Of a DNA stretch of 64,000 nucleotides, positions 33,371-58,832 are shown piece by piece; position 1 is the stretch's first letter, and each line of letters begins with the position of its first letter. Position numbers and translations under genes: made by a program. This DNA is from Parachlamydiales bacterium (lineage in GTDB: Bacteria; Chlamydiota; Chlamydiia; Chlamydiales; JAJFMK01), in the NCBI GenBank assembly GCA_963765145.1, contig CAVXVG010000020.1, forward strand, positions 32,001 to 96,000, read 5' to 3'. The notes beneath the pieces are model-generated. The model was not told where the DNA came from. It made no database searches and saw only the letters and a program-made list of their open reading frames with translations.

Positions 33371-33455
33371 GCTCGGATGGTGGAATGGTAGACACTAGGG
33401 ACTTAAAATCCCTTGCTCTTTATCGGGCGTGCTGGTTCGACTCCAGTTCCGAGCA
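33371..33455 (+). tRNA. tRNA-Leu (anticodon TAA); integration target
   Basis: Acceptor GCTCGGA/TCCGAGC+A, anticodon arm AGGGA-CTTAAAA-TCCCT, long variable arm, GGTTCGACT T-loop. Confidence 0.95.
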
Positions 33456-33516
33456 CTTAATTTACAGGGACTTAAGCGGAAATCAAAAAGGCTTAAGTCC
33501 CTTTTCTTTTTCCATT

Positions 33517-33771
33517 TTACGCACTTTTTACGCACTAGACTGCAAAAAGCCAGCATAAAAGAATTTTTTATTTTTCACTCATTTCCACCAAAAAGACGAT
33601 CTGATCTTTTTTGTCGTGTGACATGCGTGACGCTTGTGACGACTGAGAGAAAACCTTGTCACAGTTTGCTCCACTTCATTTGTGTCACTTGTGACGTTCT
33701 CCAGTTTTTCTATCTCAATTTCAATGCCTTCTTCTGTAAAAACTTTTCTCTAGTGCGTAAAAAGTGCGTAA
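33517..33771. repeat. Perfect 23-bp inverted repeat of tandem TTACGCAC (arm-type) motifs
   Basis: ttacgcactttttacgcactaga (33517-33539) / tctagtgcgtaaaaagtgcgtaa (33749-33771); motif recurs at 46468, 46733 and 49183. Confidence 0.85.
33616..33695. repeat. GTGAC/GTCAC iteron cluster 1
   Basis: GTGAC at 33618, 33627, 33636 (9-bp period), GTCAC at 33658 and 33684, GTGAC at 33691. Confidence 0.7.
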
Positions 33772-33901
33772 TTCCGTCCTTAGAGGCGAGAGCTATTCAT
33801 TTTCTACACTATGAAAACCAGTTCGACACTCAAGGGATTGTCAATCGCTTGTTGCTGTTATTGCTATATTATTTTACATATTCCCCTTTGCGAGGTTTTT
33901 A

Positions 33902-34960
33902 ATGGGTACGATTCGTGAGCTAACAAGAAAAGATGGGTCAAAAACCTATCATGCCGAAGTTAGATTAAAGGGCTATCCAGATCAAAGAGATCGTTTTCGA
34001 ACTCGTTCGGCTGCTAAAAAGTGGATACAGGATACTGAGAGCGCTATCCGTGATGGTCGTCATTTCAAAACAACTGAGGCAAAATCCCATACTGTCGGGG
34101 AGATGATCGACCGATTCGTTAACCAGTGGCTACCTAAGTTTCCTGAAAGATTGGAGAAACAAACGGCTCTCCTTTTCGTCTGGAAGGAAAAGTATGGCTA
34201 CCTCCTTTTAGCTGACTTCACCCCTGCTGTAATCGCAGAATTTAGAGATAGTCTCTTGGCAGAAACAACTGTGCGCGGCACCCTGCGAAGCCCTTCTACG
34301 GTCAATCGCTACCTTAGTGCTATGGGGAGTGTTCTTTCTGTGGCGATGAAGGAATGGGGCTGGATTGAAGACAGTCCAATGAGGAAGATCAAGAAACCAT
34401 CAGAAGCTCCTGGTCGCGAGAGATTTCTCAGCCTTGAAGAAAAGGATCGGCTGCTGGAGGCGTGTAAAGAGTCTCGCAACACTAACCTATACCCGATGGT
34501 TGCTATTTCACTGATTTTGGGGGTTAGGTACGGTGAGCTAGCAGGATTACGATGGGGAGATATCGATTGGGAGCAGAGAAAAATCACCCTCTGGCGAACC
34601 AAGAATGGAGATAATCGAATACTCCCACTAACAGCTGAAGTCGAAGATATACTCAAAGCCCTTTCTACTTTTGGAAGCTCTGCTGAAAAACTAATTTTCC
34701 AGTCTAAAAATAGACAGGTGGGGGCTTCTAAAGTTAGCGTTAGAGGAGCTTTTGAAGGGGCATGTAAAAGAGCCGACATTAATAACTTCGTTTGGCATGA
34801 CCTCAGACATTCTGCGGCCAGCTATATGGCCATGGGAGGAGCGACACAAGGTGAGCTGATGGCCATTTTGGGTCACCGTTCTCCAGCAATGACGCGTCGT
34901 TATGCCCATTACAGTCAAGATCATTTGAGAAATATGCTAGAGCGAACAAAGAGGATCTAG
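33902..34960 (+). CDS. int: Tyrosine recombinase (integrase)
   Basis: Catalytic set intact: GVRYGEL, TKNG, HDLRH, LGH, RRYAH; N-terminal arm-binding-like beta domain. Confidence 0.95.
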   Translation: MGTIRELTRKDGSKTYHAEVRLKGYPDQRDRFRTRSAAKKWIQDTESAIRDGRHFKTTEAKSHTVGEMIDRFVNQWLPKFPERLEKQTALLFVWKEKYGYLLLADFTPAVIAEFRDSLLAETTVRGTLRSPSTVNRYLSAMGSVLSVAMKEWGWIEDSPMRKIKKPSEAPGRERFLSLEEKDRLLEACKESRNTNLYPMVAISLILGVRYGELAGLRWGDIDWEQRKITLWRTKNGDNRILPLTAEVEDILKALSTFGSSAEKLIFQSKNRQVGASKVSVRGAFEGACKRADINNFVWHDLRHSAASYMAMGGATQGELMAILGHRSPAMTRRYAHYSQDHLRNMLERTKRI

Positions 34961-34963
34961 GAA

Positions 34964-36100
34964 ATGAAAAATCTATCATTCAGTGAAGAGAGCAATTTCG
35001 GGAGTTATGGGATAACTGACGTTCCATTATTACCTGGTTTTTTTAAGGGTCGATTGGTTGCGGTTCCTGCACCGCATATCCCACCTGGAGCGGTAGAGGA
35101 AGATGGCCGCTTGCATCTATATAAATTCGAACTTTTAAATAAGGGTGATGAGGTAGAAGTCCCACCACGGAAAAGCTATTTCGACTGGCTTCTTGAAAGT
35201 GGAGGGTTAAAATCCCATGTTTTAGAGCCTATTGATCCCAATGATCTAAGCGATAAAGAGACTAGGGATTTATGTAGGCGCTCAGGGATTCCGCTAGGTT
35301 GGGTCAAACCTCAGCTCGATCGAAGAAAGTTTAAGGAAAGGGCTGCTGATGTTGGGAATGTACAGTATGCTAAAAAAAGAAGGGTAAAGGAAAGGGAGCT
35401 GTACAGCGAACCCTTATTCAAAAAGTTTCTGAAGTGCCTTGGTAAGGTAAATAAAAAAAGTCGAATTGTAGCGGAGCTACTTTATCATTTGAACAAGCTC
35501 CTCTTGGGAGGTGGATACGTAACTTCAGAAGATGTTTTGCGTACGCAGCTGAAGGATGTGAGCTCTCCACTCGAACAGCCTAATTGGGTTCATTTGAGTC
35601 GAACATCTCAAGAGGGGACATTGCTATTTTCTCTTTGCTTGCCCAACAAACTAATGAAAAAGATTTTGGGGCAGATAAACCCAGGCTCAATCTTTGTGTT
35701 TGCAGCAGGCAATGGCGGGCCTCTTACGTCGGCCCAATTGGATAGAGATTTCAGGATAGCTTCTGAAAAAGCAGGAATAAATCCCCCAATTAAACCATTT
35801 AATTTAAGGCCAATAATAAACTTTGAGGCGGTATTGGAGGAAGACTATGAGCTTCTTTGTAAGGCTGTTCCCACTTTAGAACCAAAAAGAGGAAGGAAAC
35901 CAATTCGTGATCCAAGAATGCTCCTCAATGCCATGTTGTTTCATTTAAGAGCTGGTTGTCCCTTTAGAAAACTGTCCTTTGAATTGGACTGGAGAGCTGC
36001 GCATTCTCAGTATTCTAGATGGAAAAAAACTGGGGTATTTGAGGAAATTCTGAAAATTTTGAAGAAAATTTGTCCTCATTTAGCTTTTGGCAATCTTTGA
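34964..36100 (+). CDS. Chimeric protein: degenerate tyrosine-recombinase-like core plus IS5-family N-terminal (DUF4096-like) HTH
   Basis: FVFAAGNGGPLT...FRIASEKAGINPPIKPFNLR, then PKRGRKP...LNAMLFHLRAGCPFRKL...YSRWKKTGVFEEIL. Confidence 0.6.
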   Translation: MKNLSFSEESNFGSYGITDVPLLPGFFKGRLVAVPAPHIPPGAVEEDGRLHLYKFELLNKGDEVEVPPRKSYFDWLLESGGLKSHVLEPIDPNDLSDKETRDLCRRSGIPLGWVKPQLDRRKFKERAADVGNVQYAKKRRVKERELYSEPLFKKFLKCLGKVNKKSRIVAELLYHLNKLLLGGGYVTSEDVLRTQLKDVSSPLEQPNWVHLSRTSQEGTLLFSLCLPNKLMKKILGQINPGSIFVFAAGNGGPLTSAQLDRDFRIASEKAGINPPIKPFNLRPIINFEAVLEEDYELLCKAVPTLEPKRGRKPIRDPRMLLNAMLFHLRAGCPFRKLSFELDWRAAHSQYSRWKKTGVFEEILKILKKICPHLAFGNL

Positions 36101-36287
36101 ATTCGACGACAAAATTGAAATTCCTTACTCGCATGTTTGTTAAATCTGCGTCAAAAATATGCCTTTAGGAAATATCTAAAAGGCATTTCTATTGCATATA
36201 AATTTGAAATAAAATAAAAAGTGGATATAGCCACCTCAATCCAGAGCTGAGCAGTGGTAGCAGTAATTAAGTAAGAAAGAGGCATTT

Positions 36288-36602
36288 ATGCAATCAACAG
36301 TTGTTAAAGAGACATGTGCAAAGGGAGATGAAAAGAGAAATGATCATTTCGAATCTCCTCAAATTCTGACGGTTCGTCAGTTTTGCACTAGGTTTCCTTG
36401 GCCATCAGAATCAGCAATGAGGTCATACATTTACAGGGCAAAGGAACTTGGATTTTCCGAGGCTTTTATCCGCGTGAACAGACGAGTTTTAATAAACTCT
36501 AGAAAATTCTTTGAAATTATCGATCAACATCAAAGTCGTTCTAACTCAGGAGGTTTATATGAAACGGCACAATGCCCAGAAAAGGGAAAAAATCACTTTT
36601 GA
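36288..36602 (+). CDS. Excisionase/AlpA-like winged-helix DNA-binding protein
   Basis: ILTVRQF...SESAMRSYI...IRVNRRVLIN; position between int and the rep module. Confidence 0.7.
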   Translation: MQSTVVKETCAKGDEKRNDHFESPQILTVRQFCTRFPWPSESAMRSYIYRAKELGFSEAFIRVNRRVLINSRKFFEIIDQHQSRSNSGGLYETAQCPEKGKNHF

Positions 36603-36711
36603 GCGAAGCAAAACAAATCGCTGGTACGAGTACGAGCTGAATAAAAAGTACCTCAGCCACCATAAGAGGGAAGCTGAGGTTAGAGCGTTAACAAGAGATT
36701 TAGGCATCTAA
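36559..36711 (+). CDS. Small hypothetical protein (50 aa)
   Basis: AGGAGG RBS before ATG 36559; followed by hairpin gctcactccg/cggagtgagc. Confidence 0.55.
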   Translation: MKRHNAQKREKITFERSKTNRWYEYELNKKYLSHHKREAEVRALTRDLGI

Positions 36712-36764
36712 ACAACCCGCTCACTCCGCTTCAACGGAGTGAGCAATGTTTTAAACAGGCTCCT

Positions 36765-38597
36765 ATGGACAATGATATTATTTTTAATGACACCTTACAA
36801 CAAGAAGATAACAAATTCCAGTCACATACTGAGGTGATAAACATTGCGGATGCTCGAGCAGAGGAACTCCGGCAATCGGATGTTGAAAGAGCGCTCCCAA
36901 AGGGTTTTAAATTTGACCAAGAAGGGTGGTTGGTTTTTGAAGAAGAAAAGGATGGAGAAACTTCAAACTCTATTAAAATTTGCTCTCGGCTAGAGGTTGT
37001 TGCCAGATCAAGAGATCAAAACAACGAAAATCATGGTCGGATCCTTAGCTTTAAAGACCCTGATGGAGTTATGCACCGTTGGGCAATGCCGATGGCGTTG
37101 CTGGCTGGAGATGGCACCTCTTTTCGTGAAGAGTTGTTGTCGAAAGGTCTTTTGATTGCGCCTGGAAAAGGTGCTAGATCGTTTTTAGCTACCTATATCC
37201 AAATTTCAAATCCTCCAAAAACCGTGAGATGTGTTCCTCAGGTTGGATGGAACAAAAGTTTAAATGCCTTTGTTCTAAGCAACGAAACGATAGGGGAAGA
37301 GGGGAATGAACCACTTATTCTTCAGACCTCCACGGGCATGTCTTATTCACCTGATTGTCTTTTAGGCAGCTTAGAAGGGTGGAAAGAGCTGGCTTCTCTT
37401 AGTGTTGGAAACTCAAGGCTAATGTTTGCGTTATGCATAGCATTTGCACCACCTTTGCTTCAATTGTTGGGTGTTGAAGGGGGCGGTATTCACTTTAGAG
37501 GACATTCTTCTTCAGGGAAAACAACGTGTTTAAGAGTGGCGGCCTCTGTTTGGGGTGGTCAAGATTTCTTAAAAACATGGAGAACTACTTCTAATGGTTT
37601 AGAAGGTACTTCTGCCATGCATAACGATTGTCTTCTTTGCTTAGACGAGATGGGGGAAATATCACCCCAAGAAATCGGCAACGTAGCTTATATGCTTGCA
37701 AATGGTAGGGGGAAGGGGCGAGCCGACAAACTTGGTAACGCTAGAGAATCCAAAAAATGGCAATTACTTTTTTTCTCGTCTGGAGAGATAAAGCTAGGTG
37801 ACCACATGGCAGAGGCGAAGAAAACGGTAAGGGCTGGTCATGAAGTTCGTATTTTAGAAATACCTGCTGACGGCCTTAAAGAAGGTTGTTTTGAAGATAT
37901 TCATGGCTTTGAAAACGGAAAAGCGTTTGCTGATCATCTAGCAAAAATCACCAAGGCACATTATGGGATTGTAGGTAGGGAATTCCTGAGACATCTCGTT
38001 CGGTCGAAAGAACAGGCTTTAGAGCTATGGAAAATGATGAACTCCTCTTTGACTCGAAGATGTTTACCTAAGACGGCATCATCTCAAGTTCAACGTGCTT
38101 TTAATCGTTTCATACTTATCGCCGTCGCAGGTGAGTTGGCTACTCAATTTGGGTTAACAGGCTGGGAGAAAGGGGTAGCGACAGAAGCTGTAGTTCAATG
38201 TTTTAATGACTGGCTTCGTGCAAGGGGAGACGTTGGCTTGCTGGAAGAAAGGCACGCCTTAGATCAAATACGTCATTTTTTTGAGTTGCACGGTGAAAGT
38301 CGATTTAGCGCTTGCGATCAGGATGAAAATGATAAGCCGCAAGGAAAGACCTTAAACCGGGCAGGATTTAGGAAGTCAACAGACGAGGGGATCGAATTTT
38401 ACGTTCTTCCAGGTTGCTTCAAAAGTGAAATTTGCCAATCTCTAGATCCAGAATTTGTAGCGACCGTTTGCATTAAGAACGGTTGGTTAATTCCTGATTC
38501 AAAAGGTGGCTCAACGAGATCAGAAAGGTTGCCTGGGATCAAAGGGACCACTAGGGTTTACAGATTTTCATCAAAAGTACTTCAGGATGAGGAGTAG
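36765..38597 (+). CDS. DUF927-family superfamily-3-like replicative helicase
   Basis: Walker A GHSSSGKTT, WRTTSNGLE, LCLDEMGE, YMLANGRGKGRA, SSGE. Confidence 0.88.
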   Translation: MDNDIIFNDTLQQEDNKFQSHTEVINIADARAEELRQSDVERALPKGFKFDQEGWLVFEEEKDGETSNSIKICSRLEVVARSRDQNNENHGRILSFKDPDGVMHRWAMPMALLAGDGTSFREELLSKGLLIAPGKGARSFLATYIQISNPPKTVRCVPQVGWNKSLNAFVLSNETIGEEGNEPLILQTSTGMSYSPDCLLGSLEGWKELASLSVGNSRLMFALCIAFAPPLLQLLGVEGGGIHFRGHSSSGKTTCLRVAASVWGGQDFLKTWRTTSNGLEGTSAMHNDCLLCLDEMGEISPQEIGNVAYMLANGRGKGRADKLGNARESKKWQLLFFSSGEIKLGDHMAEAKKTVRAGHEVRILEIPADGLKEGCFEDIHGFENGKAFADHLAKITKAHYGIVGREFLRHLVRSKEQALELWKMMNSSLTRRCLPKTASSQVQRAFNRFILIAVAGELATQFGLTGWEKGVATEAVVQCFNDWLRARGDVGLLEERHALDQIRHFFELHGESRFSACDQDENDKPQGKTLNRAGFRKSTDEGIEFYVLPGCFKSEICQSLDPEFVATVCIKNGWLIPDSKGGSTRSERLPGIKGTTRVYRFSSKVLQDEE

Positions 38598-38612
38598 GCC
38601 ATGAGATTAAAC

Positions 38613-38690
38613 TGTCACGCTTGTCGCGCCAAAAGTTTTTGTATATGTGACAACTTTTCTCGAGTGTGTCACGGCTGTCACACTTGTCAC
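38613..38690. repeat. Iteron cluster 2 (putative origin of replication)
   Basis: GTCAC at 38614, 38668, 38677, 38686, GTCGC at 38623, GTGAC at 38647; lies between helicase and primase. Confidence 0.7.
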
Positions 38691-38719
38691 GCGCTAAAAA
38701 ATGGAGCATGGTCATTCTG

Positions 38720-39748
38720 ATGAATGTGCTCGAATTGTCGGAGGAGCTGGGTCTCATTCCTAAAAGGATGTCTTCTACTAAAGGAGGCGAATTTCACAGC
38801 CCGTGCCCAGATCCTGCTTGTGGAGGCAAAGATCGCTTTTGTGTATGGCCTAATGAAGGATCAAGCGGGCGTTACTGGTGTCGTCAATGTGGTAAATCAG
38901 GTGATGCCATCCAATTTTGCAGAGACTTTCTTGGCCTTCCCTATCTTGACGCCTGCAAAAAGGTAGGAGAAGAGCCGAGGCCTAGAGCTGAACTAATCAT
39001 CCGAAGAAGACTCCATTTTGAGCCTGAAGAAGCCATTTTCCCTTGCGAAGCTTGGATGAAAAGAGGAAAGAGCTTTGTAGAAGAATGTCATCTTAGACTT
39101 CTGAAAGAGCCAATTGCCCTTGAGATTCTTAAGAGTCGAGGAATTCATTTGGAGACCGCTAAGCAATTTAAAATAGGCTGGAATCCCGATGATCTCTTTG
39201 AGGAAAAGCAAAGTTGGGGACTAGACAAAGAGTTCAATGGGACTAGGGAAAAGAAGCAATGGTTGCCCAAGGGATTGGTGATACCCTTTTTTCAAGATGG
39301 TTGCTTACAAAAAATCAAAATCCGTCGTGCGGCATGGACGCCTAGCGACACCTTTCCCAAGTATGTTGAAGTGTCTGGAAGCAGCAAACAGTTTGCAGTT
39401 TTTGGAGACCCGACTTTGGCTGTTGTGTTGGTTGAAGCAGAGATTGATGCTATTTTGATCCAGCAGGAAGCAAGTAATCTCTGTTGTTCTGTCGCTTTAG
39501 GTGGGGCGGGAAAGAAACCAGATGGTTTTATCCATCTGCTCCTAAAGACATCGCCCAGAATCTTGTATTCCTTAGATTTTGATGAAGCTGGAAAGAAAGC
39601 ATTCTCCTTTTGGAGTCGTGTTTATCCGAACTTGATGCCATGGCCTTCACCAATAGGAAAAAGTCCTGAAGAGGCCCATAAGCAAGGAGTCAACTTGAAA
39701 GAATGGATCCAAGCTGGATTGTTAAAGCCTTCGTTAGCGTATTTGTGA
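38720..39748 (+). CDS. Primase: zinc-binding domain plus Toprim-like domain
   Basis: PCPDPACGGKDRF...YWCRQCGKSGDAI; VLVEAEIDA; LDFDEAG. Confidence 0.85.
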   Translation: MNVLELSEELGLIPKRMSSTKGGEFHSPCPDPACGGKDRFCVWPNEGSSGRYWCRQCGKSGDAIQFCRDFLGLPYLDACKKVGEEPRPRAELIIRRRLHFEPEEAIFPCEAWMKRGKSFVEECHLRLLKEPIALEILKSRGIHLETAKQFKIGWNPDDLFEEKQSWGLDKEFNGTREKKQWLPKGLVIPFFQDGCLQKIKIRRAAWTPSDTFPKYVEVSGSSKQFAVFGDPTLAVVLVEAEIDAILIQQEASNLCCSVALGGAGKKPDGFIHLLLKTSPRILYSLDFDEAGKKAFSFWSRVYPNLMPWPSPIGKSPEEAHKQGVNLKEWIQAGLLKPSLAYL

Positions 39749-39876
39749 GTAAGTATAGAAACAATAAACACATGAAGATGTATCCCTATGATGATTTAAA
39801 ATTTTGTCTTACAATTTGGGGTAGAGAGTTAGCAGTTAACAGACTGGAACTATAATTAGAAAATTAGGAACGAAAA

Positions 39877-40263
39877 ATGACTGAAAAGTACGAAAAAGGC
39901 CTGACTGATCGACAGAAAAGAGCACTCCCTTTTTTTGTCGGCTGTAAAAGTTATGAAGAAGGATGTCGTAAAGCCGAGGTTTCTAAGCATGCATTCTATT
40001 CCTGGTTGCAAAATCCTGCCTTCAAATCAGAATTGACTCGACTACAAGATGACGTAGTTTCCGAGGCCGTACTGACACTGAAATTTAATATGACACATGC
40101 CACGGATGTTCTAGTCTCTCTACTAGAGCATAAAGATAACCCTTCGCTTCAAAGGGCTGTGTGTAACGACATCATTGGACATGTCTCAAAATTCCGTGAA
40201 ATTGAGGAGATCGAGCGTAGGCTTGACGCCCTTGAGAGTAATGCAAAACTCAATCCAATTTAG
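39877..40263 (+). CDS. HTH protein (phBC6A51-like / small-terminase-like)
   Basis: LTDRQKRA...AEVSKHAFYSWLQNPAF; C-terminal EIERRLDALE coil. Confidence 0.6.
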   Translation: MTEKYEKGLTDRQKRALPFFVGCKSYEEGCRKAEVSKHAFYSWLQNPAFKSELTRLQDDVVSEAVLTLKFNMTHATDVLVSLLEHKDNPSLQRAVCNDIIGHVSKFREIEEIERRLDALESNAKLNPI

Positions 40264-40273
40264 GAAGGTAGCC

Positions 40274-40534
40274 ATGGCTTTTCATTCTCGCCTGAAAAGA
40301 TTAGAAAACAAGCTCGAAGATGAGCAAGAACTGCATGCAGTGTTTAGGATCAATTACTATGAGAATAAAGATGAGGGAAAAAAGGTTCGGGATCGACTTG
40401 TAGATGAATATTTTTCTGACGGTAAGCCTAAACCCACTCTCAGCATTTTTATCACTGATTTTGGGGGAACAAACCCAGAAGGCTTTGTATATTCATACAA
40501 ACCGAGTGTTCCTCGGTCCTATGCCAGGAATTAA
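40274..40534 (+). CDS. Hypothetical protein
   Basis: GGAAGG RBS; SRLKRLENKL N-terminus; coupled to the upstream gene. Confidence 0.6.
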   Translation: MAFHSRLKRLENKLEDEQELHAVFRINYYENKDEGKKVRDRLVDEYFSDGKPKPTLSIFITDFGGTNPEGFVYSYKPSVPRSYARN

Positions 40535-40549
40535 ACTAAAGAGGTTGTC

Positions 40550-41191
40550 ATGAGCAAAAGCACAGAAATGATCCCAGAGGATTCTAATATTCCTCATACA
40601 CCGAATATCCCTGAAAAGAAAATTCAAGGGAAAAAACCCCAAGCAAAACCCTTTTTTACTGCAAACAAGGAAAAAGAGCGCGATTTATTAAAAATGAATA
40701 GTGAGGCAGTCGACCTCACCGAAAGACTTCAAAAAGCTACTGGTAGCGAGAACGACATCATAGCTCGAGTTGAACTTAGCTCTTCAGTGGGTGCCGCTAT
40801 ACCTTTTGGTAAACATAAAATTGAAGACACACTCGACTTTTCAAACTCAATAGCTTTAACAATGGAAGCTTTAGCGCCTCAAGATGAAATTGAAGGGCAT
40901 TTGGTTTCCCAACTAGCTGTGCTTCAGCAACATTCAATGTATTGGTTGGCCAAGGCTGTCAATACCGAGAGGGTTGATTTCGCTAATGTCTATCTGAACG
41001 GAGCATCTAAAATGCTGGCGCGTCATCATGAAACTATTGAAACTTTGATGAGATACAGGCGACGTGGTGAACAAAGAGTGCATGTCGAACATGTTCATGT
41101 GCATGAAGGAGGCCAGGCCATTGTTGGCAATGTCAACACTGGGGGTGGGTCAAACCAAAAAGCCGGAGAAGGTCCCCATGCAAAGGTGTAA
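40550..41191 (+). CDS. Hypothetical protein of the type found next to HGGxSTG genes
   Basis: PQDEIEGHLVSQ; RYRRRGEQRVHVEHVHVHEGGQAIVGNV C-terminus. Confidence 0.7.
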   Translation: MSKSTEMIPEDSNIPHTPNIPEKKIQGKKPQAKPFFTANKEKERDLLKMNSEAVDLTERLQKATGSENDIIARVELSSSVGAAIPFGKHKIEDTLDFSNSIALTMEALAPQDEIEGHLVSQLAVLQQHSMYWLAKAVNTERVDFANVYLNGASKMLARHHETIETLMRYRRRGEQRVHVEHVHVHEGGQAIVGNVNTGGGSNQKAGEGPHAKV

Positions 41192-41390
41192 AGCCAAGTC
41201 CAAGCGTTCAGGCGAACAGTGCAAGAACTACGCCCTAAAAACCTACGGAGTTTGCCGTATGCATGGTGCCCGTGGAGGTCCAAAGACTAAGAAGGGACGC
41301 ATAGCTTGCAAAATGGCGCCAATGAAACACGGAGTGTTCAGCCAGGAAGACATAAAAGAGCGCCAACTAGTGAAGTCATTGTTGGCTTAA
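41178..41390 (+). CDS. HGGxSTG-domain-like small Cys/His protein
   Basis: RCKAKSKRSGEQCKN...CRMHGARGGPKTKKGR...MKHG. Confidence 0.75.
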   Translation: MQRCKAKSKRSGEQCKNYALKTYGVCRMHGARGGPKTKKGRIACKMAPMKHGVFSQEDIKERQLVKSLLA

Positions 41391-41396
41391 AGCTTG

Positions 41397-42332
41397 CTAG
41401 TCTTTTTGTCCAAAAACCACAGATGAGAACAGATCTAATATCGCAATTCTTCCGCCTAATAAAGCCATTTCGTAGGGTGTTTTTATACCCCCATAACACA
41501 TAGCTTTTGCGATTGGGTCAGCGCCATACTTTATTAGCAACTTTGCAGCTTCAAAATCGTTATTTGAAACAGCCCAATGAAGGTGTATGGTTTTTTCTAA
41601 AGCATGTAATTGATGATTAGTATTTTCTGGAATATCGAACTTATTAACATATGCAAGAAGTGTTTCTGCGATATCTAATCTTTTATTAACAAAGGCGAGT
41701 TCCAAAGGTGAAGCATGCTTACCAAAAATCCCCTTACGCCATGGATTCGGGCGTTTTTGTGATTTTTGCAATAAATAGTTGATAAGGTCGAGGTTGCCTG
41801 TATTTACTGCTTCACACAATGTATATGATGGGGAGCCAGGTATGTTTTCGTTTTTAGAATAGAGTTCTACTAAGTTGACATCAGCACCCCTATCGAAGAG
41901 TGGTTTTAAATATTCCAGAGCATTCTTTGACTCGCGAACGATTATTTGTAAGATTCTAGTTTCAGCAAGTTTTACCTCTCGGATAGAGCGATTAGAAGAG
42001 TGTCTAAGAACATATTCAGAAATATTATTAACGGATAGGTCAGGTAAAGCCGAGAGGATTGTCTTAAATAGAAGGAGTCTATCCTGCCTTATGCAAGTAA
42101 TAAGGATGTTTTTGCATGTTATATCGGCTTTATTCTTTCTCCAGTCCTTTTCACCTGACAAATAGACAAGGTCTCCAGTGCCAAACTTTTCAATTAAAAA
42201 GAGGACTAATTTTTCATTATACAGCTTTTCTATCGCATAAGCAGTTTCTGACCAGCCAAACTTTTTTTCTTCACTTTGAGAGTAATTTATTAAAAACTCA
42301 TCAAAGTATTCTTTTTCAACGACGCTTATCAT
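41397..42332 (-). CDS. Ankyrin-repeat protein (cargo)
   Basis: RGADVN, LCEAVNTGNLDLINYLL, SPLELA, LHWAVSNNDFEAAKLLIKYGADP. Confidence 0.85.
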   Translation of the reverse strand: MISVVEKEYFDEFLINYSQSEEKKFGWSETAYAIEKLYNEKLVLFLIEKFGTGDLVYLSGEKDWRKNKADITCKNILITCIRQDRLLLFKTILSALPDLSVNNISEYVLRHSSNRSIREVKLAETRILQIIVRESKNALEYLKPLFDRGADVNLVELYSKNENIPGSPSYTLCEAVNTGNLDLINYLLQKSQKRPNPWRKGIFGKHASPLELAFVNKRLDIAETLLAYVNKFDIPENTNHQLHALEKTIHLHWAVSNNDFEAAKLLIKYGADPIAKAMCYGGIKTPYEMALLGGRIAILDLFSSVVFGQKD

Positions 42333-44343: not shown

Positions 44344-44344
44344 T

Positions 44345-50212: not shown

Positions 50213-50349
50213 TTAGTGTTCTCATCATTGAGAAAAAGCACCAAATTTTGAGTTGGAGTTTTGCTGATATATCTATTAATTATTTTTTGTTCTAATTCTC
50301 GTGTTTGCTATAATTACTCTCCAATATTTTTTAAAAAAGAGGGGAAAAA

Positions 50350-51279
50350 ATGGCGACCATATCGAGAAATCGATTTGCGGCACTGGAGGCAAATTACTTT
50401 AATGGTGCAGAAGAGCTCAAAGGGCAGCTCGATCTTTTGGGTAAGGCTTTTAGCGCCGAGGTGATCCGTTTAGACCATCTTCACGATATCTATCCCATCT
50501 ATGGTGCTCTGAATCGGATTACTCAAGCTGTAGCAGAACTTGCCAACGAAGAGTTGACTGCTGAATGGAGTGAGATCTTAACGACCCTTCATGGAAGAAA
50601 AATTCACCAGGTTGGATTTGGTCAAACCTCGATTGATACCTCTTTTGCTAATGATTTACTGACAAAAAAGCCGGGCGTAGAAGAATGGCAGGTGGGTGTC
50701 TGCGATTTAAAAAATTCAAAGAGCGTTTCTGATTTAATCGATTACCAACAGGCTGTTGACAAAGAGGCCTACGCAGAATGTCATAGAAGGGGATTTTTTG
50801 AATACTTGTTTGGGTCAAAAGATGCTCTCTGCATGACAGCAAAAAATGACCAAGGGCAAATTGTGGGGGCTTTGTGGGGCTTTTTCAAAGAAGAAAATGG
50901 GGGCAAGATCTTTCATTTCTTTGACCTTTCCTGTCGAGCGCAGTTTGCACACATGGGGGTTGCAAAAGCTCTGATTGAGTGTGCGAAAGCGCAGCAGGTC
51001 AACTATCCGGAAGTGATGACGGCTACCCTAAATGTGATGGCAAACAATCCTCTCGCCAAGCAGATCTATGAGAATCTCGAGTTCAAGACTATAGATCCTT
51101 CTGAGAACGAGAAGATTTTCATGGCAAAGCCTATTGCAGAGGCAAGCAAAGACGTTCCAGTTGATGCAAAAGCCATTGTGGTCCGGTTTGTAATGGCGTC
51201 GGTGTCTCTGCCTTATTTGCTCTTCAACGAGCTTGTCCGCCGCACGGAGCTGTTGTTCCGCTCCTGGTGGTATCAATAG
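50350..51279 (+). CDS. GNAT acetyltransferase with N-terminal extension
   Basis: IVGALWG, FAHMGVAKALI, LNVMANNPLAKQIYENLEF. Confidence 0.8.
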   Translation: MATISRNRFAALEANYFNGAEELKGQLDLLGKAFSAEVIRLDHLHDIYPIYGALNRITQAVAELANEELTAEWSEILTTLHGRKIHQVGFGQTSIDTSFANDLLTKKPGVEEWQVGVCDLKNSKSVSDLIDYQQAVDKEAYAECHRRGFFEYLFGSKDALCMTAKNDQGQIVGALWGFFKEENGGKIFHFFDLSCRAQFAHMGVAKALIECAKAQQVNYPEVMTATLNVMANNPLAKQIYENLEFKTIDPSENEKIFMAKPIAEASKDVPVDAKAIVVRFVMASVSLPYLLFNELVRRTELLFRSWWYQ

Positions 51280-51417
51280 TTTTTGGTGAAAGGGGCCGAG
51301 CCTATCCTGCGATAATCTGGCATCATGTTTTGAATAGGTAGAGCCATAAGAACATCTCCTTTTGCATAGGAGTTTAAAGAATGTCGATTTTAAAGAAAGA
51401 CCCGGTTGGTCCTTAAT

Positions 51418-52098
51418 TTAATCTTCTATGTGCTGTGCGTGAGGGAATTGGGAGAGAAGTGCCTTGTCAAGTTTTCCATCGGCTCTCGAAAGGTCAAATT
51501 GAAGGTTTGAAACGGCACGTTTTAGAGGATCTAAATGGGCCACGCTCATTGCTTCTGTGATTTTCAAGAATTGAAGTGGCGCTTCCTCTAGTGGTTGGAG
51601 AGAAGGGACGTTGCATGCATTCAGAATTGTCACCGAATTTAGAGGAGCTCCATTTAAGAATTCGATATCTTGCAATATGGCGCCCTGCGAGATCACAAGT
51701 TCCTGAAGACATGGGCTCTTTACCTTTTCAAGCGATTCGATGAAATGACCAATACGCAATTTTTCGAGACGGGGAAAAAAAGATAAAAGGCGGCCTGAGC
51801 TGACATGCGAGACATCCATATCCATGTCTGTTACTTTTTCTCGAACTTCTTTTGGCATCTGTTCTAAAAAGGTGTAGAAATCGTCCTGTTCAGTGTAAGG
51901 GTCGCAAACTTTGAAGGAGCTCTCATGAAGTTGGTAGACTACACCGCCTAATGAAGGAGCAGGAAGTGATCCATCGCCTGCCTTCAAAGTCTTCACAAAA
52001 AGTATTTGATAGACTGTCATTTCCGATTGCCGCTCTTCCAAAGTGCGGATGACGGAATGCCTATGATTTGTTGGGGTACTTGGTACTGAAGAGGTCAT
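51418..52098 (-). CDS. Short LRR-like protein, effector candidate
   Basis: FPRLEKLRI, LQELVI, PLNSVTI, PLQFLKI; S/T/P-rich N-terminus. Confidence 0.6.
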   Translation of the reverse strand: MTSSVPSTPTNHRHSVIRTLEERQSEMTVYQILFVKTLKAGDGSLPAPSLGGVVYQLHESSFKVCDPYTEQDDFYTFLEQMPKEVREKVTDMDMDVSHVSSGRLLSFFPRLEKLRIGHFIESLEKVKSPCLQELVISQGAILQDIEFLNGAPLNSVTILNACNVPSLQPLEEAPLQFLKITEAMSVAHLDPLKRAVSNLQFDLSRADGKLDKALLSQFPHAQHIED

Positions 52099-52111
52099 AA
52101 CGATTATTCCA

Positions 52112-54390
52112 TCACAATTTATAACTTTCTAAAAGGGCATGCAGTGTGAGCTCCTTTGCATTAGAGGGAGCTATGCATGCATTAGTAGTATACGCTAAAT
52201 CTTCAATTTCGCGGGTGATGGATTGCGTTTCAGCAATGAGATGCTCAACCTTATTGTCGCCTAGCATCAATTCGCTTTCAAGATTTTGGAACAGTTCCGT
52301 GTGGGCTTCCTCTAGGAGAGCTAGTTGATCTGCTCCTATGTGACTTCTTAAAAGAGGATCCTGCAGGGAAAGTCCTGCCATAGAGCGCAGAATAGCCTCG
52401 ATTTTCGGGGGTAGTGAGGGGGATTCCGCCAATTCCGATTTCTCTAACTTAGAAACTGCTAAGGCAAAGAGATCTTCAGGGGCGACAAGATTATCGCGGA
52501 TGTGTGCATGAGCATCCTTTAATTTTGCCAATCTATCGTTTAAAGCGGGAATTAAACTCTCGGGGTCGCTTGGACTTAGCTCATTTGCGAGTTGTCGGAT
52601 CGCAAAGGCAAAGGGTAGCATTTTTTTTCGCTTCAATTTTTCAAGGTCGTCAACCTTCTCATAAAGTTCGGTGATCAGCAGTTCGTGTTGCCCATAAAGT
52701 TGGGCGATCAGCTGTTCATGCTCCTTATTGAGTTCGGCAATTAGCTGTTCGTGCTTCTCATTGAGTTGGGCGACTTGCTCATCTTTCCCATAAAGTTCGG
52801 CGATCTGAAGTTTATGCTGTTTATTGAGTTCGGCAATCTGCTTCTTGTGTAGTTCGCTGTCTTTGGATTTCATTTGGGCTACGAGTTCATGTCCCGCATA
52901 CACGATCCTGAGGAGATATTTGGACCGTTTTACCAAGGCATCATAAGGGGTAGCCTTTTGATCGAGGTCATCTTGGTAATGGGAGAGGAATTTCCCCAAA
53001 TTTTCTTTCATGCTGCTCAGACATTCTTGAGGAGTCCCATCTTCCGAAGATCCGTGAACAGATAGAGGACGGATCGGTTGATCTCCAAATAGGAGGCGGA
53101 TCAGCCAACTCCTCCACCCTTTAGGCCCATCATAATGAGCCTCCCTAAGAGGGGAAAGAGCCTGCCTCATCCGTTGCTCATGGATTTGCCCTCCATTGCG
53201 AAAGCAAGTGATGCCGTAGCCTCCTTGAGTCAGATAGCTATCGTCATAAAGGGCATTTCTAAGGGAAGCGTGGGCTGCGAGTTTTACATATAGGGAATCA
53301 GTATCCTCTTTTCGAGCCTTAAGGATCTCCTCCTCCAGCGCATCCATCTTTTTGCCAATTTCGAGGACAAGTGGCGCCCTAAACAGGAGAATAGCATCCT
53401 GCATTTTTTCTCGGGTGTCGGGATCATTTAAGAGTTGCTGGTACTTTAGCGCAATTTCAAGAGCCCCCCCTTCCTATAAAGAGGCTCAATGACTTCCGCT
53501 TCTGATGGGACAATTCTGGCAAAAACCTTTAAAATCCCTAAGTGAAGAGCACGCTCGAAAGCCTGCGCTTCGCCTAGCCGCTTAATCTCTCTTTTTCCAC
53601 GATTATCAATCTCTTCTTTTTCGTGCTCTTTTTTTCCCTCTGTATTCTTAAGAATAGTATAATCGGCTTGCAGCCTCTTACGATACTTAGTGAGTAATTC
53701 TGGCTTGGAGGAGAGGGAGCGATAAACTTGTAAAGCCGCTAGGTTTGCTTCAAGAGCGGCAAAGTCGCTTTTTGCCTTGGAAGATGTGAGACGTGCTTCT
53801 GTTTGTAGAGCCTCTCCCGGATGATTGGTGTAGGTAGATACATCGGCCATATCGCTTGTATGTCCATCAAATATAGCACGCCATAGGTGCTGAAAAAGTA
53901 CCCATTCTCTGGACTCGTTAGTGTGCGAAAGGGGCCCATAAAGAACGCGGTCAATGTCTGAGTCGTGCCCTGGGGTTCCAAATGCGGTAGCTTCCCCTAA
54001 ACCGTCAGTCGCCATGTTGATCGAAACTTTCCCGGTGAGCGTTGTGATCGATTGCCTAAGGGAGTCAAAAGAGAGCATCGAGCTCTTTGGCTCACTTTTT
54101 TTGAGGTTTGCCCAGCCATCCTCCTTCATCTTAGAGAGGAGGCCTTGATTTTGTGACTTCACTGATTTCATTTCCGCAAACAAGTTAGGTTGGCTAGTCT
54201 TTGTCAACTTGCGGAGTTTTTGAGCAGTCGCATTTATGCTCTCTGGACCGACTTTTTCTGAAAAAAGAGTACCGTCCAGTTCTTCCGATGAAACAGGCTT
54301 AGCAGGAAGGATCTTCCCAAGATAGGGGAGCCCTATATGGAAAGAAGAGAACCAAGAAGTAAAACCTTCGAAAAGCCAAATTGATGTCAT
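52112..54390 (-). CDS. Large nucleotidyltransferase-motif protein with coiled-coil repeats, frameshifted at C7 (53464-53470)
   Basis: FGTPGHDSDIDRVL; adding one G joins the two track ORFs into 759 aa. Confidence 0.65.
52661..52856 (-). repeat. Degenerate ~33-bp (11-aa) coding tandem repeat
   Basis: QIAELNKQHKL / QIAELYGKDE / QVAQLNEKHEQ / LIAELNKEHEQ / LIAQLYGQHEL / LITELYEK. Confidence 0.8.
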
Positions 54391-54722
54391 ATTAAAATAT
54401 TTAAACACAAATATATTTAGATAATATAAAGGTTCTTGAGCATAAATCCTTTAGCACGCGCTGATAATTATATCTCTTATTCAGATTTCTATGCATTGAG
54501 GTATCCATTGGAGCTGTATGATAAAAAAGAATACATCTCCTTATTCTCGAGAGACCTCCTACAAACAATTGCGTCAGAGCAACATTTTTTGATCCAATTA
54601 AAGCCGAGCCTCAATTGGGGTAAAAGCATCCTTTAAATCCCAAACTTCTTCCAAGCGATAGGGGTTTGGAGCTGACAAAATTTTGCCCATTTTGCACAAT
54701 GCGTTCTCTTAAAGGGGGTTTT

Positions 54723-55271
54723 ATGTCCACTTCATCACTCAATCTTCAAGCTGTGCACAGCAGCTTGGTTGTCATCAATCCACAAGGTGGCGAACTTGAT
54801 AAGCAAGCCATGTTACGCATCCAAGGGGTCGTTAGCCACCTTCTCAAAATAAAACGGGAGCCGATTTATGGAGGGCAGGATCTCCTGCTTGGTCTGATGT
54901 GGGAAAAACCGAGTGTGTTGCAGACTCGTGTTCTTTACGAGGGGGTAAATCTGCTGGGTATTCTTGTCTTCGGAAACAACGTGGAACAAGCGGCTGATGG
55001 GAAGGATGCGATTGCCATTAAAGCCCTTGAAATTACAAAATTGGCACCAAAGCGGCAGCAAAAGAAGGAATGTTTCGAAAAGCTTTTGAATATTGTGAAA
55101 GAGCATGTGAAACTAAATCATTCCTCCCTCCTAGATCTTTCAACAGTGATTAGTCAGGAAGAGAATGAGGTGCGAGATCTTTTTCAAGATTGCGGGTTTA
55201 GGATCACCAAGACGCAGAAAAGTTCTCGTTATAAGGAGAAATCAGAGCATCTGCTCCGCCTTTCAAACTAG
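54723..55271 (+). CDS. Hypothetical protein, weak GNAT-like fold
   Basis: LLGILVF...DLFQDCGFRI pattern. Confidence 0.5.
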   Translation: MSTSSLNLQAVHSSLVVINPQGGELDKQAMLRIQGVVSHLLKIKREPIYGGQDLLLGLMWEKPSVLQTRVLYEGVNLLGILVFGNNVEQAADGKDAIAIKALEITKLAPKRQQKKECFEKLLNIVKEHVKLNHSSLLDLSTVISQEENEVRDLFQDCGFRITKTQKSSRYKEKSEHLLRLSN

Positions 55272-55423
55272 GTCTAAAGGCAGAATCTCTTTGATCTGCA
55301 ATGTTGTTAATATAACTAATCGTTAACTTTTAAATGTTTGTGGACAATACTTTGGTGTATTATTTTCCTTTTGCTGAAAAAAGACGGATGTTTTTTGCTG
55401 TTGGTTTTTGGAGGTTGTCAGGG

Positions 55424-55774
55424 ATGGAAGTCGATAAATTTGTGAATATAATGGTGAATGTTCCAGCCGACCACGCCGATGCAGTGCGAGCAGCAATGGG
55501 TGAGGCTGGGGCAGGTAGACTTGGCAATTACCAATATGGCTCTTTTTCTGTTAAAGGAACGGGTAGATTTATCCCGCAAAATGAAGCTCAACCTAAGATT
55601 GGGAAGGTGGGAGAGCTAGAATCGGTTGAAGAAGAATTGATCGAAGTTTTGTGTGAAGAGTCGATACTGGAAAAGGTGGTCGAGGCAATTGAAAAGGTCC
55701 ATCCTTATGAAGAAATTGGCATCACTTTTTTCCCAGTTCAAGTGGTTAGATCCAAGGCTAAGAAAAAAGCATGA
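55424..55774 (+). CDS. YqfO/NIF3-associated PII-like domain protein
   Basis: VPADHADAVRAAMGEAGAGRLGNY, GTGRF, HPYEE. Confidence 0.85.
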   Translation: MEVDKFVNIMVNVPADHADAVRAAMGEAGAGRLGNYQYGSFSVKGTGRFIPQNEAQPKIGKVGELESVEEELIEVLCEESILEKVVEAIEKVHPYEEIGITFFPVQVVRSKAKKKA

Positions 55775-55912
55775 GTAAACAAGCCTAACCTCCAGGCCCT
55801 GCAATAGTGAAAGGGGCCCTGGGTTGCATCGCCAGCACCTTGGCTTTGCTCTTTCCAAAAGACAGGTATTTCGATATTATTCATTTAATAAAAACCTACA
55901 ATTTTTTGTTTA

Positions 55913-56725
55913 ATGTTTATTCCTGCTCAATCCCCATTTCCTTTACTTAATGTTTCTTATACGTTTCAGGAAAGAAAGGAGATGATAAAAAGAGATTTTG
56001 TTGAGAGGATTCCCTTTTATTTAATGACTTTTGGTGCAACTGCGCTTTTTACTAAAGAAACTGACCGGGTATCACTTGCATTAAGAGCAATTAACTATCT
56101 TGTTTGTTCCTCTGCTGCCCAAGCGTTAGCCCATCTCTTTGATGAGGCAGCTAAAAAGACAAATCACAAGGGCATTGTCATTTTGCTGCACAAGATGGAA
56201 GTCGGTTGTAGGTACATGCACCACTATCTTCATGCTGATTGGTACAACCGAACGGTGGGCCAACTTTTTCATGAAATAGGCCATGTAGCAATGGTCGAAT
56301 TGTTATGTAAGGACACTACATCCACTGTTGAGATCTACGGAGGTGGAAAAAGTATTTTTGGTGGATCAGGGTACAAGTATAAGTATGAATCTTTGTCAAA
56401 GCTCGGTCGAATATTAGGAGAAAAAAACGTTACTTTAATGGTAACTGCTGCAGGCCCTTTGGTCGACATGATCCACGCCTTGAGTCTGACTTTTCTTGCA
56501 CATGTAAGTCAAGGGCATGCAGTTGGGGAGTATCAGGCAAGACTTTGCCGCTTAGTGTTTAGGGCTGTTGACTTGTCTTATGATTCCTTTTATCTGCCGG
56601 TACTTGGAAAGACAGTCGAGACCGACTACCTAATCATTGAGAGAATGAGTCATATCCCTCGGTATGTGATTGCCGGCTCTTTTGCGGTGTTACCTTATCT
56701 TTTTAGCAAAGTGCTTAAAAGCTAA
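55913..56725 (+). CDS. M50-like membrane metallopeptidase
   Basis: FHEIGH and AAGP motifs, TDY, hydrophobic segments. Confidence 0.7.
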   Translation: MFIPAQSPFPLLNVSYTFQERKEMIKRDFVERIPFYLMTFGATALFTKETDRVSLALRAINYLVCSSAAQALAHLFDEAAKKTNHKGIVILLHKMEVGCRYMHHYLHADWYNRTVGQLFHEIGHVAMVELLCKDTTSTVEIYGGGKSIFGGSGYKYKYESLSKLGRILGEKNVTLMVTAAGPLVDMIHALSLTFLAHVSQGHAVGEYQARLCRLVFRAVDLSYDSFYLPVLGKTVETDYLIIERMSHIPRYVIAGSFAVLPYLFSKVLKS

Positions 56726-56774
56726 CAGAATGGCAGCTTCAAGTTCGACACTTCTCATGACAGTTAAAGACTTT

Positions 56775-57341
56775 TCATAGTAGCGCGGGGGAATTTGCTG
56801 GAAGAATCGGGGTAGCCGCCATTGCTGCTTGAAGCTTTTTGACATAGCTTTCATACTTTTTATTGCCCGGATGGGTAAAACAAGAGCCTTTATTATCATC
56901 GTTTAAGGTCCAAATAATTTTTGAAGAAAATTCGGCAGGGACTGACAACAAAAAATGGGTCATTTCTATGTGTCGGATATCCATGGCCCCAAAAGCATCT
57001 TTCTTGGCTGCGATTAAGAAAAAATTAGCATCTTTTGCTTGTTTTCTGATCTCCAGCGCTAGCTGAGCAGCATTTTGAATAGTTTCATCTGATGCTGTTC
57101 CCTTTGGATCTAAAAGCAGCGCATGCACATCGCGAAACACAACCTTTTTGTGCTCTCCCTCACGAAAACCGCTCCGTAGATTTAATGTGAGATCATTGAT
57201 CATCTTAATGGTAGTATTGTTATTTTTTAGTTCTCTATTGGCTCGAATGGTTCCAAGAACATGGTGAGTGGCTACCTCAAAAAATAGACCTGTTGGTTGA
57301 GAAACAATATGGGGGGAAACTCTGACGACACTGGCAGCCAT
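56775..57341 (-). CDS. Hypothetical protein
   Basis: AGGAG RBS before ATG 57341. Confidence 0.6.
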   Translation of the reverse strand: MAASVVRVSPHIVSQPTGLFFEVATHHVLGTIRANRELKNNNTTIKMINDLTLNLRSGFREGEHKKVVFRDVHALLLDPKGTASDETIQNAAQLALEIRKQAKDANFFLIAAKKDAFGAMDIRHIEMTHFLLSVPAEFSSKIIWTLNDDNKGSCFTHPGNKKYESYVKKLQAAMAATPILPANSPALL

Positions 57342-57462
57342 GTTACTCCTATTGGGCTGAAACACAAAGACAAGCGAGATACAAAAAAGCTTAGAATAAC
57401 CCAAACATACTCAAAAGCGTTTTTTCAAAGCACGTAAAAAAACATTGGGACCGATCCCTTTC

Positions 57463-57513
57463 ATTTAGTATATTTGAGGGCTGCCCAGGCAAGCGTTGCA
57501 GTGAATTAAACCC
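57463..57513 (-). pseudogene. Internally deleted remnant of the 3' end of gene 48315-49106
   Basis: 57463-57493 matches 48317-48347 (29/31); tgaattaaaccc at 57502-57513 = 48409-48420. Confidence 0.7.
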
Positions 57514-57616
57514 CAAGATGTCATTTTAGTCTTTTTCAAGCTCGAAAAAAAGAGGCTTTCTATTCAAAAATAGGTGAAATAGGTAGCATTTCAATTTTAA
57601 CTGCTCAAAAGGACAT

Positions 57617-58666
57617 ATGAGAAAACTCCCTTTATTTATGTTGTCAGCCGTTTTAGCCGGACAAGCTGTTTCAGCCTGCGATTCCTCAACTGTTTTTGAG
57701 ATGTATGGCACATGCCTTTACCTCCAACCAGGTGGAACGGATCAGTATTATGGCGTACAAGCTATTGGCTTAGATCCAGATATCACGATTCCTGCACTTT
57801 CTCCTAACTGGGATATATTGGAAATCAACCCTCGTTACCATTGGGGCTTTGAAATTGGTACAAAAGTTACACTTCCATGTTCTGGCTTTAGTTTAGATGC
57901 TAATTGGGAAAGGTTGCATTGCCGAGATTCAAGTTCCTTTTTAGCCTCTTCTGCAGATGGGTTTATGGTAGGTCCATTTTTTGATATTGGTCCTAATTCT
58001 GAACCATATAAATTGGCTCAAGGAACAGTTAAACATCAATTTGATAAAGTGGATTTGCGCTTAGGAAAAGCGTTTTGCTTCAACGATAATTTTATCGTTA
58101 ATTTTTTTGCTGGAGTTAGTGGCGCAAGAATCAACCATACCCTGCAATCCTCTTATTCCAATGCTAGTTCTGAGATTGCTCGGACATTAAACTGTCCTTC
58201 CACATTCATGGGAGCAGGCCCCATGATTGGGTTAGCCTATGATTACGAAATTTTTTGTAACTTCTTTTTTGTTGGAGAAACAACCTCTTCTTTACTAGTG
58301 GGAAGGTCAAAAAATCAAACAACTTTCCAATCGCTTTCGCCCGAACTTACCACTCTTGGGATACCGCAGCCAAATACTCAAGCGACTTATAACCCGCATA
58401 GAGCACAAATGGTACCTGGCTTAGAACAGAGAATCGGCTTTTCCTATATGTACTCTTTCGATTGCTGGTCAATCACCCTTGAGGCAGGGTACCAATGCCA
58501 ACTTTACTTCAACGCTATCCAGTCAGTTGACATGACAGCTCCTCAAGTGTTGCCTGCAGGAGCTATTTTTACTCCGCAAGTAGGTCTATTTGCCGTTGGT
58601 TTTGAAAGAACAATCAGTGATTTTATGCTGAATGGTATTTACGCTACTTTAAATATCGAATTCTAA
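57617..58666 (+). CDS. Lpg1974-family / MOMP-like outer-membrane porin
   Basis: Signal peptide; LYLQP, PRYHWGFEIG, FMGAGP, LEAGY; terminal Phe. Confidence 0.8.
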   Translation: MRKLPLFMLSAVLAGQAVSACDSSTVFEMYGTCLYLQPGGTDQYYGVQAIGLDPDITIPALSPNWDILEINPRYHWGFEIGTKVTLPCSGFSLDANWERLHCRDSSSFLASSADGFMVGPFFDIGPNSEPYKLAQGTVKHQFDKVDLRLGKAFCFNDNFIVNFFAGVSGARINHTLQSSYSNASSEIARTLNCPSTFMGAGPMIGLAYDYEIFCNFFFVGETTSSLLVGRSKNQTTFQSLSPELTTLGIPQPNTQATYNPHRAQMVPGLEQRIGFSYMYSFDCWSITLEAGYQCQLYFNAIQSVDMTAPQVLPAGAIFTPQVGLFAVGFERTISDFMLNGIYATLNIEF

Positions 58667-58670
58667 GCGA

Positions 58671-58698
58671 AAGGGGCTGGTCCGTCCGGCTCCTTTTA
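58671..58698 (+). terminator. Rho-independent terminator
   Basis: aaggggctgg...ccggctcctttt. Confidence 0.65.
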
Positions 58699-58803
58699 CT
58701 TCAATTCTTTGATCAGTCCTAAGTTGTTTTTAATTGTACTCCAAAAAAAGCCTCTATACCTGCAATTTCTTTTTTCTTAAAGATCCTCCAGGTTGAGCTT
58801 TCC

Positions 58804-58832
58804 TAAGCAATGATAACCGACTAAAATCCCTT
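58804..58832 (+). repeat. Degenerate attR3 remnant
   Basis: taagcaatgataaccgact-aaaatccctt matches the right-end/att junctions at 46589-46618 and 49304-49333 with a 1-bp deletion. Confidence 0.8.

Follow-up and report, generated by a model that had tools for sequence, protein, structure and literature searches.

How does a tRNA gene of an environmental chlamydia come to be followed by a row of partial copies of itself, with different genes lying between them? The question is raised by a tRNA-Leu locus in a stretch of 64,000 nucleotides (nt), the window, from a Parachlamydiales bacterium (GenBank assembly GCA_963765145.1, contig CAVXVG010000020.1, positions 32,001–96,000; coordinates below are those of the window). 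The genome that carries it (G000) is a metagenome-assembled genome (MAG) of 2.68 Mb in 37 contigs and is 85% complete. Attachment (att) copies behind the tRNA gene delimit three units: unit 1 (33400–46603, 13.2 kb), unit 2 (46604–49318, 2.7 kb) and unit 3 (49319–58818). The locus is probably a stack of one complete-looking, satellite-like element and two integrase-less relatives, built up by repeated site-specific insertion, which was followed by deletion of the left half in the older residents. This reading is supported by co-oriented att copies that are unique to the locus, by an intact integrase and by a satellite-like gene order.

The target is a tRNA-Leu(TAA) gene on the forward strand (33371–33456), which is the sole tRNA found in the region by ARAGORN and Rfam; Rfam gave no other match there. 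The part of the gene that is repeated begins at 33400, in the anticodon arm, and forms the left att site (attL) of unit 1, which would place the crossover of this unit at the same position. The first copy, at 46604, matches the 3' part of the tRNA at 56 of 56 nt and continues for a further 44 identical nt, approximately 100 nt in total, with 92% identity over 139 nt. The second (49319–49368) matches at 49 of 50 nt and is divergent thereafter, while the third, whose core lies at 58819, retains 29 of 30 nt with one gap. All three share one orientation. In addition, each is preceded by an identical right end of 15 nt, which occurs exactly three times in the 2.68-Mb genome, always at this locus. 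At the third copy, this right end and 4 nt of the core make up a 19-nt exact run from 58804 that is shared with the first copy and is expected by chance genome-wide at 3e-5.

A first-pass annotation of the window had reported these repeats from 46604, 49319 and 58804 onward, and they are borne out, truncation of the second included. It had also proposed a common right end before every copy, which is correct for the 15 nt; the full arm of 136 nt is present only in units 1 and 2, and unit 3 keeps the 15-nt tip. That the array is an artefact of assembly, or a set of chance repeats, is very improbable. A MAG in 37 contigs leaves some room for it, but the att copies differ from one another and are at most about 140 nt long, the chance expectation of even the weakest copy is that given above, and the same geometry is found in 24 other genomes inspected, some of them on contigs of 2–3 Mb. 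Misassembly was rejected because the copies differ and the geometry recurs in other genomes.

Unit 1 is likely to be a complete-looking, phage-satellite-like integrative element, as judged from its ends and gene order. Its left att arm (33457–33536, forward strand) comprises a hairpin and a direct pair of arm-type-like sites at 33517–33535. This pair, of 7–8 nt sites, is present at two places, one 118 nt past the core and the other 136 nt ahead of the next core, where the right att arm begins (46468–46603, forward, 136 nt). An inverted copy of the pair (33749–33771, reverse) lies 130 nt before the start of the integrase gene and occupies the same position in most close family members. By analogy with lambda-type integrases, these pairs would be arm-type sites. 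The tyrosine integrase itself (33902–34960, forward, 352 aa; Pfam PF00589, E 1.6e-29) has an intact frame, and R209, K234, H299, R302, H325 and Y334 are all in place in the alignment; from knowledge of the family, we take these to be the catalytic residues. As the first-pass annotation had stated, only this tRNA-proximal unit has an integrase. The named close relatives of the enzyme come mostly from chlamydial MAGs and then from Methylococcales at 43–49% identity; no relative was confirmed on viral contigs; named phages reach only about 31% identity.

The integrase is immediately followed by a gene for a 378-aa protein (34964–36100, forward), which consists of an integrase-like middle domain without the catalytic Arg, His and Tyr and a C-terminal, IS5-type helix-turn-helix (HTH). 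Comparison with an integrase profile gave an hhalign probability of 90% (E 1.5e-6), a value that may be inflated because the profile contained true integrases. Several chlamydial elements conserve it in this position directly after the integrase; in others, the slot is taken by a different integrase-like gene. Next comes a conserved, small open reading frame (ORF) of 104 aa (36288–36602, forward), which has no Pfam, PHROG or NCBIfam match and whose position suggests an excisionase/AlpA-type role. A DUF927 helicase/primase-associated replication protein (36765–38597, forward) and a primase with a Zn ribbon and a Toprim domain (38666–39748, forward) follow. Four further ORFs (39877–41390, forward) encode a TerS-like HTH protein, unknowns of 119 and 213 aa and a HGGxSTG-domain protein. 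The TerS-like match is weak (PHROG terS, E 2e-5 to 5e-3) and lies mainly in the HTH; paralogues elsewhere in the genome reach a PHROG E of 8e-12. The remainder of the unit (41397–46453) is low-GC cargo, comprising an ankyrin protein, membrane or secreted unknowns and DUF2167, with a mean GC content at third codon positions (GC3) of 0.317. Among the 18 ORFs of unit 1 that were scanned against Pfam and PHROG, none matched a tail, holin or capsid protein; Pfam and further profile scans of its proteins found no relaxase, and a promoter scan of its left end detected none.

Unit 2 is an integrase-less sibling. It has a core at both ends, an intact right arm and a damaged left arm, which together with the first att copy occupies 46604–46741 on the forward strand. 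Its left end follows the family sequence as far as the damaged arm pair, and the inverted pair is absent. The unit encodes an AbiEii toxin and an AbiEi antitoxin (46829–48275, reverse; type IV toxin–antitoxin (TA), abortive infection), with both frames open, and a 291-aa protein that matches no known family (48315–49190, reverse) and, among 199 other genomes of the order, has relatives in 3. This is its entire content, the integration and transfer genes being gone. PADLOC recognized only AbiE, two further matches at E ~1e-3 being disregarded. The right att arm (49183–49318, forward) has its arm pair intact and is identical to that of unit 1 at 118 of 136 positions; the two units have no cargo in common.

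Unit 3 is damaged at both ends and has no arm-type pair at either. On its left, the truncated second att copy (forward) is followed by a genome-wide dispersed repeat, and there is no left arm; on its right, a relic at 58804–58840 (forward) consists of the 15-nt arm tip and a damaged core. Between them (49814–58666) are host-like ORFans, a GNAT, a weakly P-II/CutA-like protein and a Legionella-OMP-type porin (57617–58666). At 57459–57493 (reverse), 35 nt survive from the 3' end of the 291-aa gene of unit 2 (91% identity); this relic is present at no other place in the genome. The porin gene sits between this relic and the arm tip, which is where the arm and a cargo gene were lost. The mean GC3 of unit 3 is 0.417 (8 genes), against 0.425 for 1810 ORFs of the genome and the much lower value of the unit-1 cargo. 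In addition, its genes resemble those past 58.8 kb and also the genes that follow this tRNA in a single-contig genome of the same genus (G001).

Since unit 3 holds a relic of a unit-2 gene, it can be tied to unit 2. It is likely an eroded sibling of that unit which later took in other DNA, because the arm tip and the gene relic flank the porin and the genes are host-like. The same host-like genes mean that unit 3 is not established as one delivered cassette, and that reading, taken as a demonstrated fact, was rejected on the host-like GC3 and the lack of arm pairs. The earlier proposal that one element family repeatedly delivered cargo to this site is therefore sustained as regards units 1 and 2 and the right tip of unit 3; it is not established for the effector-like genes and porin of unit 3, given their host-like GC3 and the position of the porin where the arm was lost. 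Three repeats were observed in this region: a palindromic one at 49390–49447, with 99 blastn matches dispersed across the genome and a further occurrence about 170 nt behind tRNA-Leu in G001; a 217-nt, MITE-like (miniature inverted-repeat transposable element) segment at 49497–49713, which is bounded by 26-nt terminal inverted repeats and has partial copies on three further contigs; and a 33-nt tandem repeat inside a coiled-coil ORF (52650–52849).

From the observed att copies, arms, gene content and order-wide recurrence (see below) we infer the following dynamic steps. A lambda-type integrase would recombine the attP of a circle, made up of the 136-nt right arm, the core and the left arm, with the anticodon arm of the tRNA gene. 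Insertion would restore the tRNA and push earlier residents outward. Older residents would then shed the left arm, the integrase and the replication genes, whereas the right arm and the adjoining cargo would stay. The cargo beside the retained arm is often a TA pair, which would resist loss. Such a relic would be immobile alone; recombination of the tRNA site with the second att copy could, however, release units 1 and 2 jointly as a 15.9-kb circle (cis-mobilization). Unit 3, likely an older sibling of unit 2, would have been eroded to its tip and overwritten by the ordinary gene traffic of a variable region. Transfer between cells would probably need a helper, most likely a tailed phage.

The architecture of this locus recurs across the order. 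An integrase relative (E < 1e-40) is present in 132 of 301 genomes, so that the statement that Chlamydiae are poor in mobile DNA fails for this order, as it does in view of published Protochlamydia islands (PMC5010888, accessible text). A search of 401 genomes with the 16-nt core, with copies counted by hand, found it in 279, with at least two copies in 54 and at least three in 14; in family f35, whose genome size of about 1.0–1.4 Mb suggests that it is likely Chlamydiaceae, all 30 genomes have a single copy. Extra core copies are not always att sites, the second one in genome G002 being another whole tRNA. From 31 stretches in 25 genomes, picked for their extra core copies, 45 units of 0.24–19 kb were delimited. 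Arm pairs were counted in 44 of these, from 24 genomes, one unit of 239 nt being excluded. A pair lies 124–142 nt before the core in 30 of the 44, compared with 9 of 264 control windows. Integrase-bearing units have a right pair in 13 of 15 cases and a left pair in 12 of 15; for integrase-less units these figures are 17 of 29 and 5 of 29 (left-arm control, 9 of 176).

No integrase match was found in 30 of the 45 units, nor did Pfam find an integrase among 93 ORFs from these. Such units might be purpose-built cassettes that the family integrase, acting in trans, excises and inserts one by one, to integron-like effect, and whose cargo is attached at the outer edge of the right arm. Their number fits this, as does their size, many being 0.8–3 kb with one to three genes. 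Seventeen of the 30 carry TA-like, Schlafen or AAA/DUF4143 genes, by a manual classification that has no background set; others carry CAT, APH or GNAT. Three of nine tRNA-anchored arrays contain no integrase sequence at all. Further, homology between right ends within a genome breaks off 123–145 nt away from the core in 11 of 12 pairs and extends to 294 nt in the other; 7 genomes are represented, G162 with 6 pairs. We nevertheless consider cassettes of this kind unlikely. The low frequency of the left pair means that most integrase-less units could not form a full attP, no attC-like fold is seen, and unit 2 has a damaged left pair and no inverted pair. Units in G014 and G354 are chimeric, with the left arm of one family and the right arm of another, and such arms, together with integrase fragments, point to deletion. 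An empty unit of 239 nt in G178 (L065:11174-11413) consists of left and right att arms only; it and the chimeric arms are what deletion would give.

The sharp edge of homology could reflect selection on the arm and recombination between copies. Directed capture at the arm edge is a bolder reading, which can be extended to an order-wide system of gene capture at tRNA-Leu(TAA). Here, satellite-like elements would join genes precisely at the outer edge of the 135-nt att arm, perhaps aided by the catalytically dead, integrase-like protein, and one-arm cassettes with defence, resistance or host-interaction genes would be shuffled and exported in cis. We regard this system as doubtful. If it were true, it would be a main route by which these intracellular bacteria gain genes, and tailed helper phages, as yet undescribed, would have to be widespread.

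Several of the arrays show further features. In G041, an integrase-free array (L006:8103-11901) has a chloramphenicol acetyltransferase gene in its second unit and a third arm relic behind a truncated ORF, presumably of TrmH type. A tRNA-Leu element in G075 (L079:1072-18270) carries a large terminase gene, a serine recombinase and a 940-aa unknown, with no capsid match. On contig C9 of G162 (L054) there are three att copies whose arms are those of the tRNA-anchored array on a different contig of G162; no tRNA is seen before C9 ends.

Relatives were compared in search of an empty site. G001 has a single match to the tRNA region and no att relic in the 40 kb fetched. It has, however, a different variable gene set at the locus, as well as a broken AbiE pair in the opposite orientation, and is therefore not a clean empty site. 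The contigs of G002 and G003 end 0.3 and 1.5 kb past the tRNA, respectively. Within G000 itself, three more att-bounded elements of the same build are present, at tRNA-Asn and two tRNA-Met genes, each with its own arm motif approximately 135 nt before the core (L083:564-14445 on contig C29, L084:3064-12146 on C26 and L085:431-8112 on C2). The L083 element carries an HNH and a Tad2-like ORF. A further related integrase is on contig C17. Terminase_6N has no match in G000 at its 85% completeness and matches in 11 of 151 genomes of the phylum. F-type TraC is found on contig C1, an 85-kb contig of lower GC on which an F-type tra cluster (~6.5–25 kb) is followed by many effector-like genes.

The first-pass annotation had described an age gradient of att sites. 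In the present array decay is indeed monotonic, but the gradient is not general: among nine tRNA-anchored arrays, decay rises with distance in four, is flat in four (one, G331, scored with caution owing to a mis-set 22-nt reference) and is reversed in one, G110, where the inner att copy is worn and the outer perfect. This reversal would suit another origin of units 2 and 3, in which a single element was duplicated in tandem or delivered as a composite and then rearranged, with no separate arrivals; apparent ages would then not give the order of arrival. The left ends of units 1 and 2, identical over approximately 100 nt, and the gene relic common to units 2 and 3 are consistent with such an origin, and transfer of CIME–ICE tandems (cis-mobilizable elements (CIMEs) with integrative and conjugative elements (ICEs)) is reported in the accessible text of PMC5704250. 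Yet 18 of 136 positions distinguish the right arm of unit 1 from that of unit 2, the units have no cargo in common and decay is monotonic here, all of which make this origin quite unlikely.

Other points weigh against repeated insertion and left-half deletion as well. The evidence consists of assembled sequence, and the nearest relatives belong to other species. At the locus, G001 shows a variable region and yet no att relic, and the gradient is confined to four of nine arrays. Simple independent insertion explains poorly why the 44 nt past the tRNA end are identical in units 1 and 2 while their right arms are 13% different, and homology that stops so regularly at the outer edge of the arm has a sharper boundary than would be expected from random decay. 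The TerS assignment is weak, and the genome, at the completeness given, has no Terminase_6N match.

The closest known parallel is provided by the CIMEs of ICESt1 and ICESt3. The accessible text of PMC5704250 describes integration–decay–accretion in three steps: integration at a tRNA or gene end, decay of the integration and transfer genes with retention of att sites, and arrival of a newcomer at the restored site, which yields a tandem with a chimeric internal att. The same model is set out in the tycheposon preprint cited below. The content of unit 2 is of this kind. The present case differs in that the active partner, being satellite-like, has no relaxase or conjugation genes and is not an ICE or an integrative and mobilizable element, most relics are one-armed, the host belongs to an intracellular lineage and cis-mobilization is a predicted step. 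Unit 1, with a restored tRNA and a displaced, co-oriented fragment enclosing an integrase, also fits the definition of a tRNA-targeted tyrosine-integrase island used by Islander, for which the accessible text gives 125 tandems among 3919 islands (PMC4383910). Units 2 and 3 lack an integrase, whereas each member of an Islander tandem array has its own.

Tycheposons of Prochlorococcus are described, in the accessible part of a preprint (10.1101/2020.12.28.424599), as elements whose newcomers displace residents outward and leave partial tRNAs. They share with the present elements a tyrosine integrase at a tRNA, a gene in the excisionase position, a primase/helicase module, cargo and stacking between partial tRNAs, and the earlier suggestion of a tycheposon-like way of working agrees with this layout and with the outward stacking. 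Tycheposons are, however, defined as one integrase clade with its own hallmark profiles, and the elements here are likened to them by layout. According to the preprint, no tycheposon with both cargo and the features of a phage-inducible chromosomal island (PICI) was seen, whereas unit 1 has a TerS-like gene and cargo. PICIs themselves, whose core components and dispensable capsid-morphogenesis gene (type B) are set out in the accessible text of PMC10085698, resemble unit 1 in size (~13 kb), integrase, primase–replicase module, TerS-like gene and subsequent accessory genes, and in the lack of tail, holin and capsid matches. Unit 1 differs in having no AlpA, MerR, Stl or capsid-morphogenesis match, a weak TerS match and a helper that is hypothetical, and in the integrase-like, catalytically dead gene that follows its integrase.

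The likeness to integrons, also raised earlier, is limited to the layout, in which short units of accessory genes follow a single recombinase in a row, with the newest first. The junctions here are tRNA fragments with double-stranded, arm-type sites and not attC hairpins: DNA folding of both arms and the junction, on both strands, gave z values of -0.6 to +0.9 and no attC-like hairpin. The unit 1 integrase scores 36 bits against the IntI profile TIGR02249, whose cut-off is 265, and integrase-less units are mostly one-armed. The integron reading was rejected for want of IntI and an attC fold; no common promoter was found.

Within the same order, the accessible text of PMC5010888 describes 5–15 kb, strain-specific, integrase-bearing islands by tRNA-Leu, -Met and -Thr in Protochlamydia naegleriophila. 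The integrases next to tRNA-Leu and tRNA-Met and a cargo that includes a chloramphenicol acetyltransferase and an OMP-like gene recall the present elements; these are single islands, and that text describes no att sites, arms, tandem arrays or element family. T4SS (type IV secretion system) and phage genes are noted on chlamydial plasmids in the accessible part of PMC7846284; PMC10880633 and the iOriT preprint, each seen in part, serve as context only. No account of chlamydial tandem arrays or of this element family was found in the literature searched, the coverage of which was limited and excluded supplements. Integrase islands beside tRNAs were already known in Protochlamydia.

The locus is likely an instance of a known mechanism in a new lineage and is ordinary for bacteria by itself; because the mechanism is known, a single locus of this kind is unsurprising. 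What is added is an order-wide, satellite-like family with a fixed att arm geometry and one-armed relics in an intracellular lineage. In environmental chlamydiae, tRNA-Leu(TAA) is a hotspot that collects TA, defence-like, resistance-like and host-interaction genes. Amoeba-associated lineages could gain a genetic tool from a site-specific integrase that targets a conserved chlamydial tRNA. The elements offer a testable route of gene gain for obligate intracellular bacteria and point to unknown helper phages.

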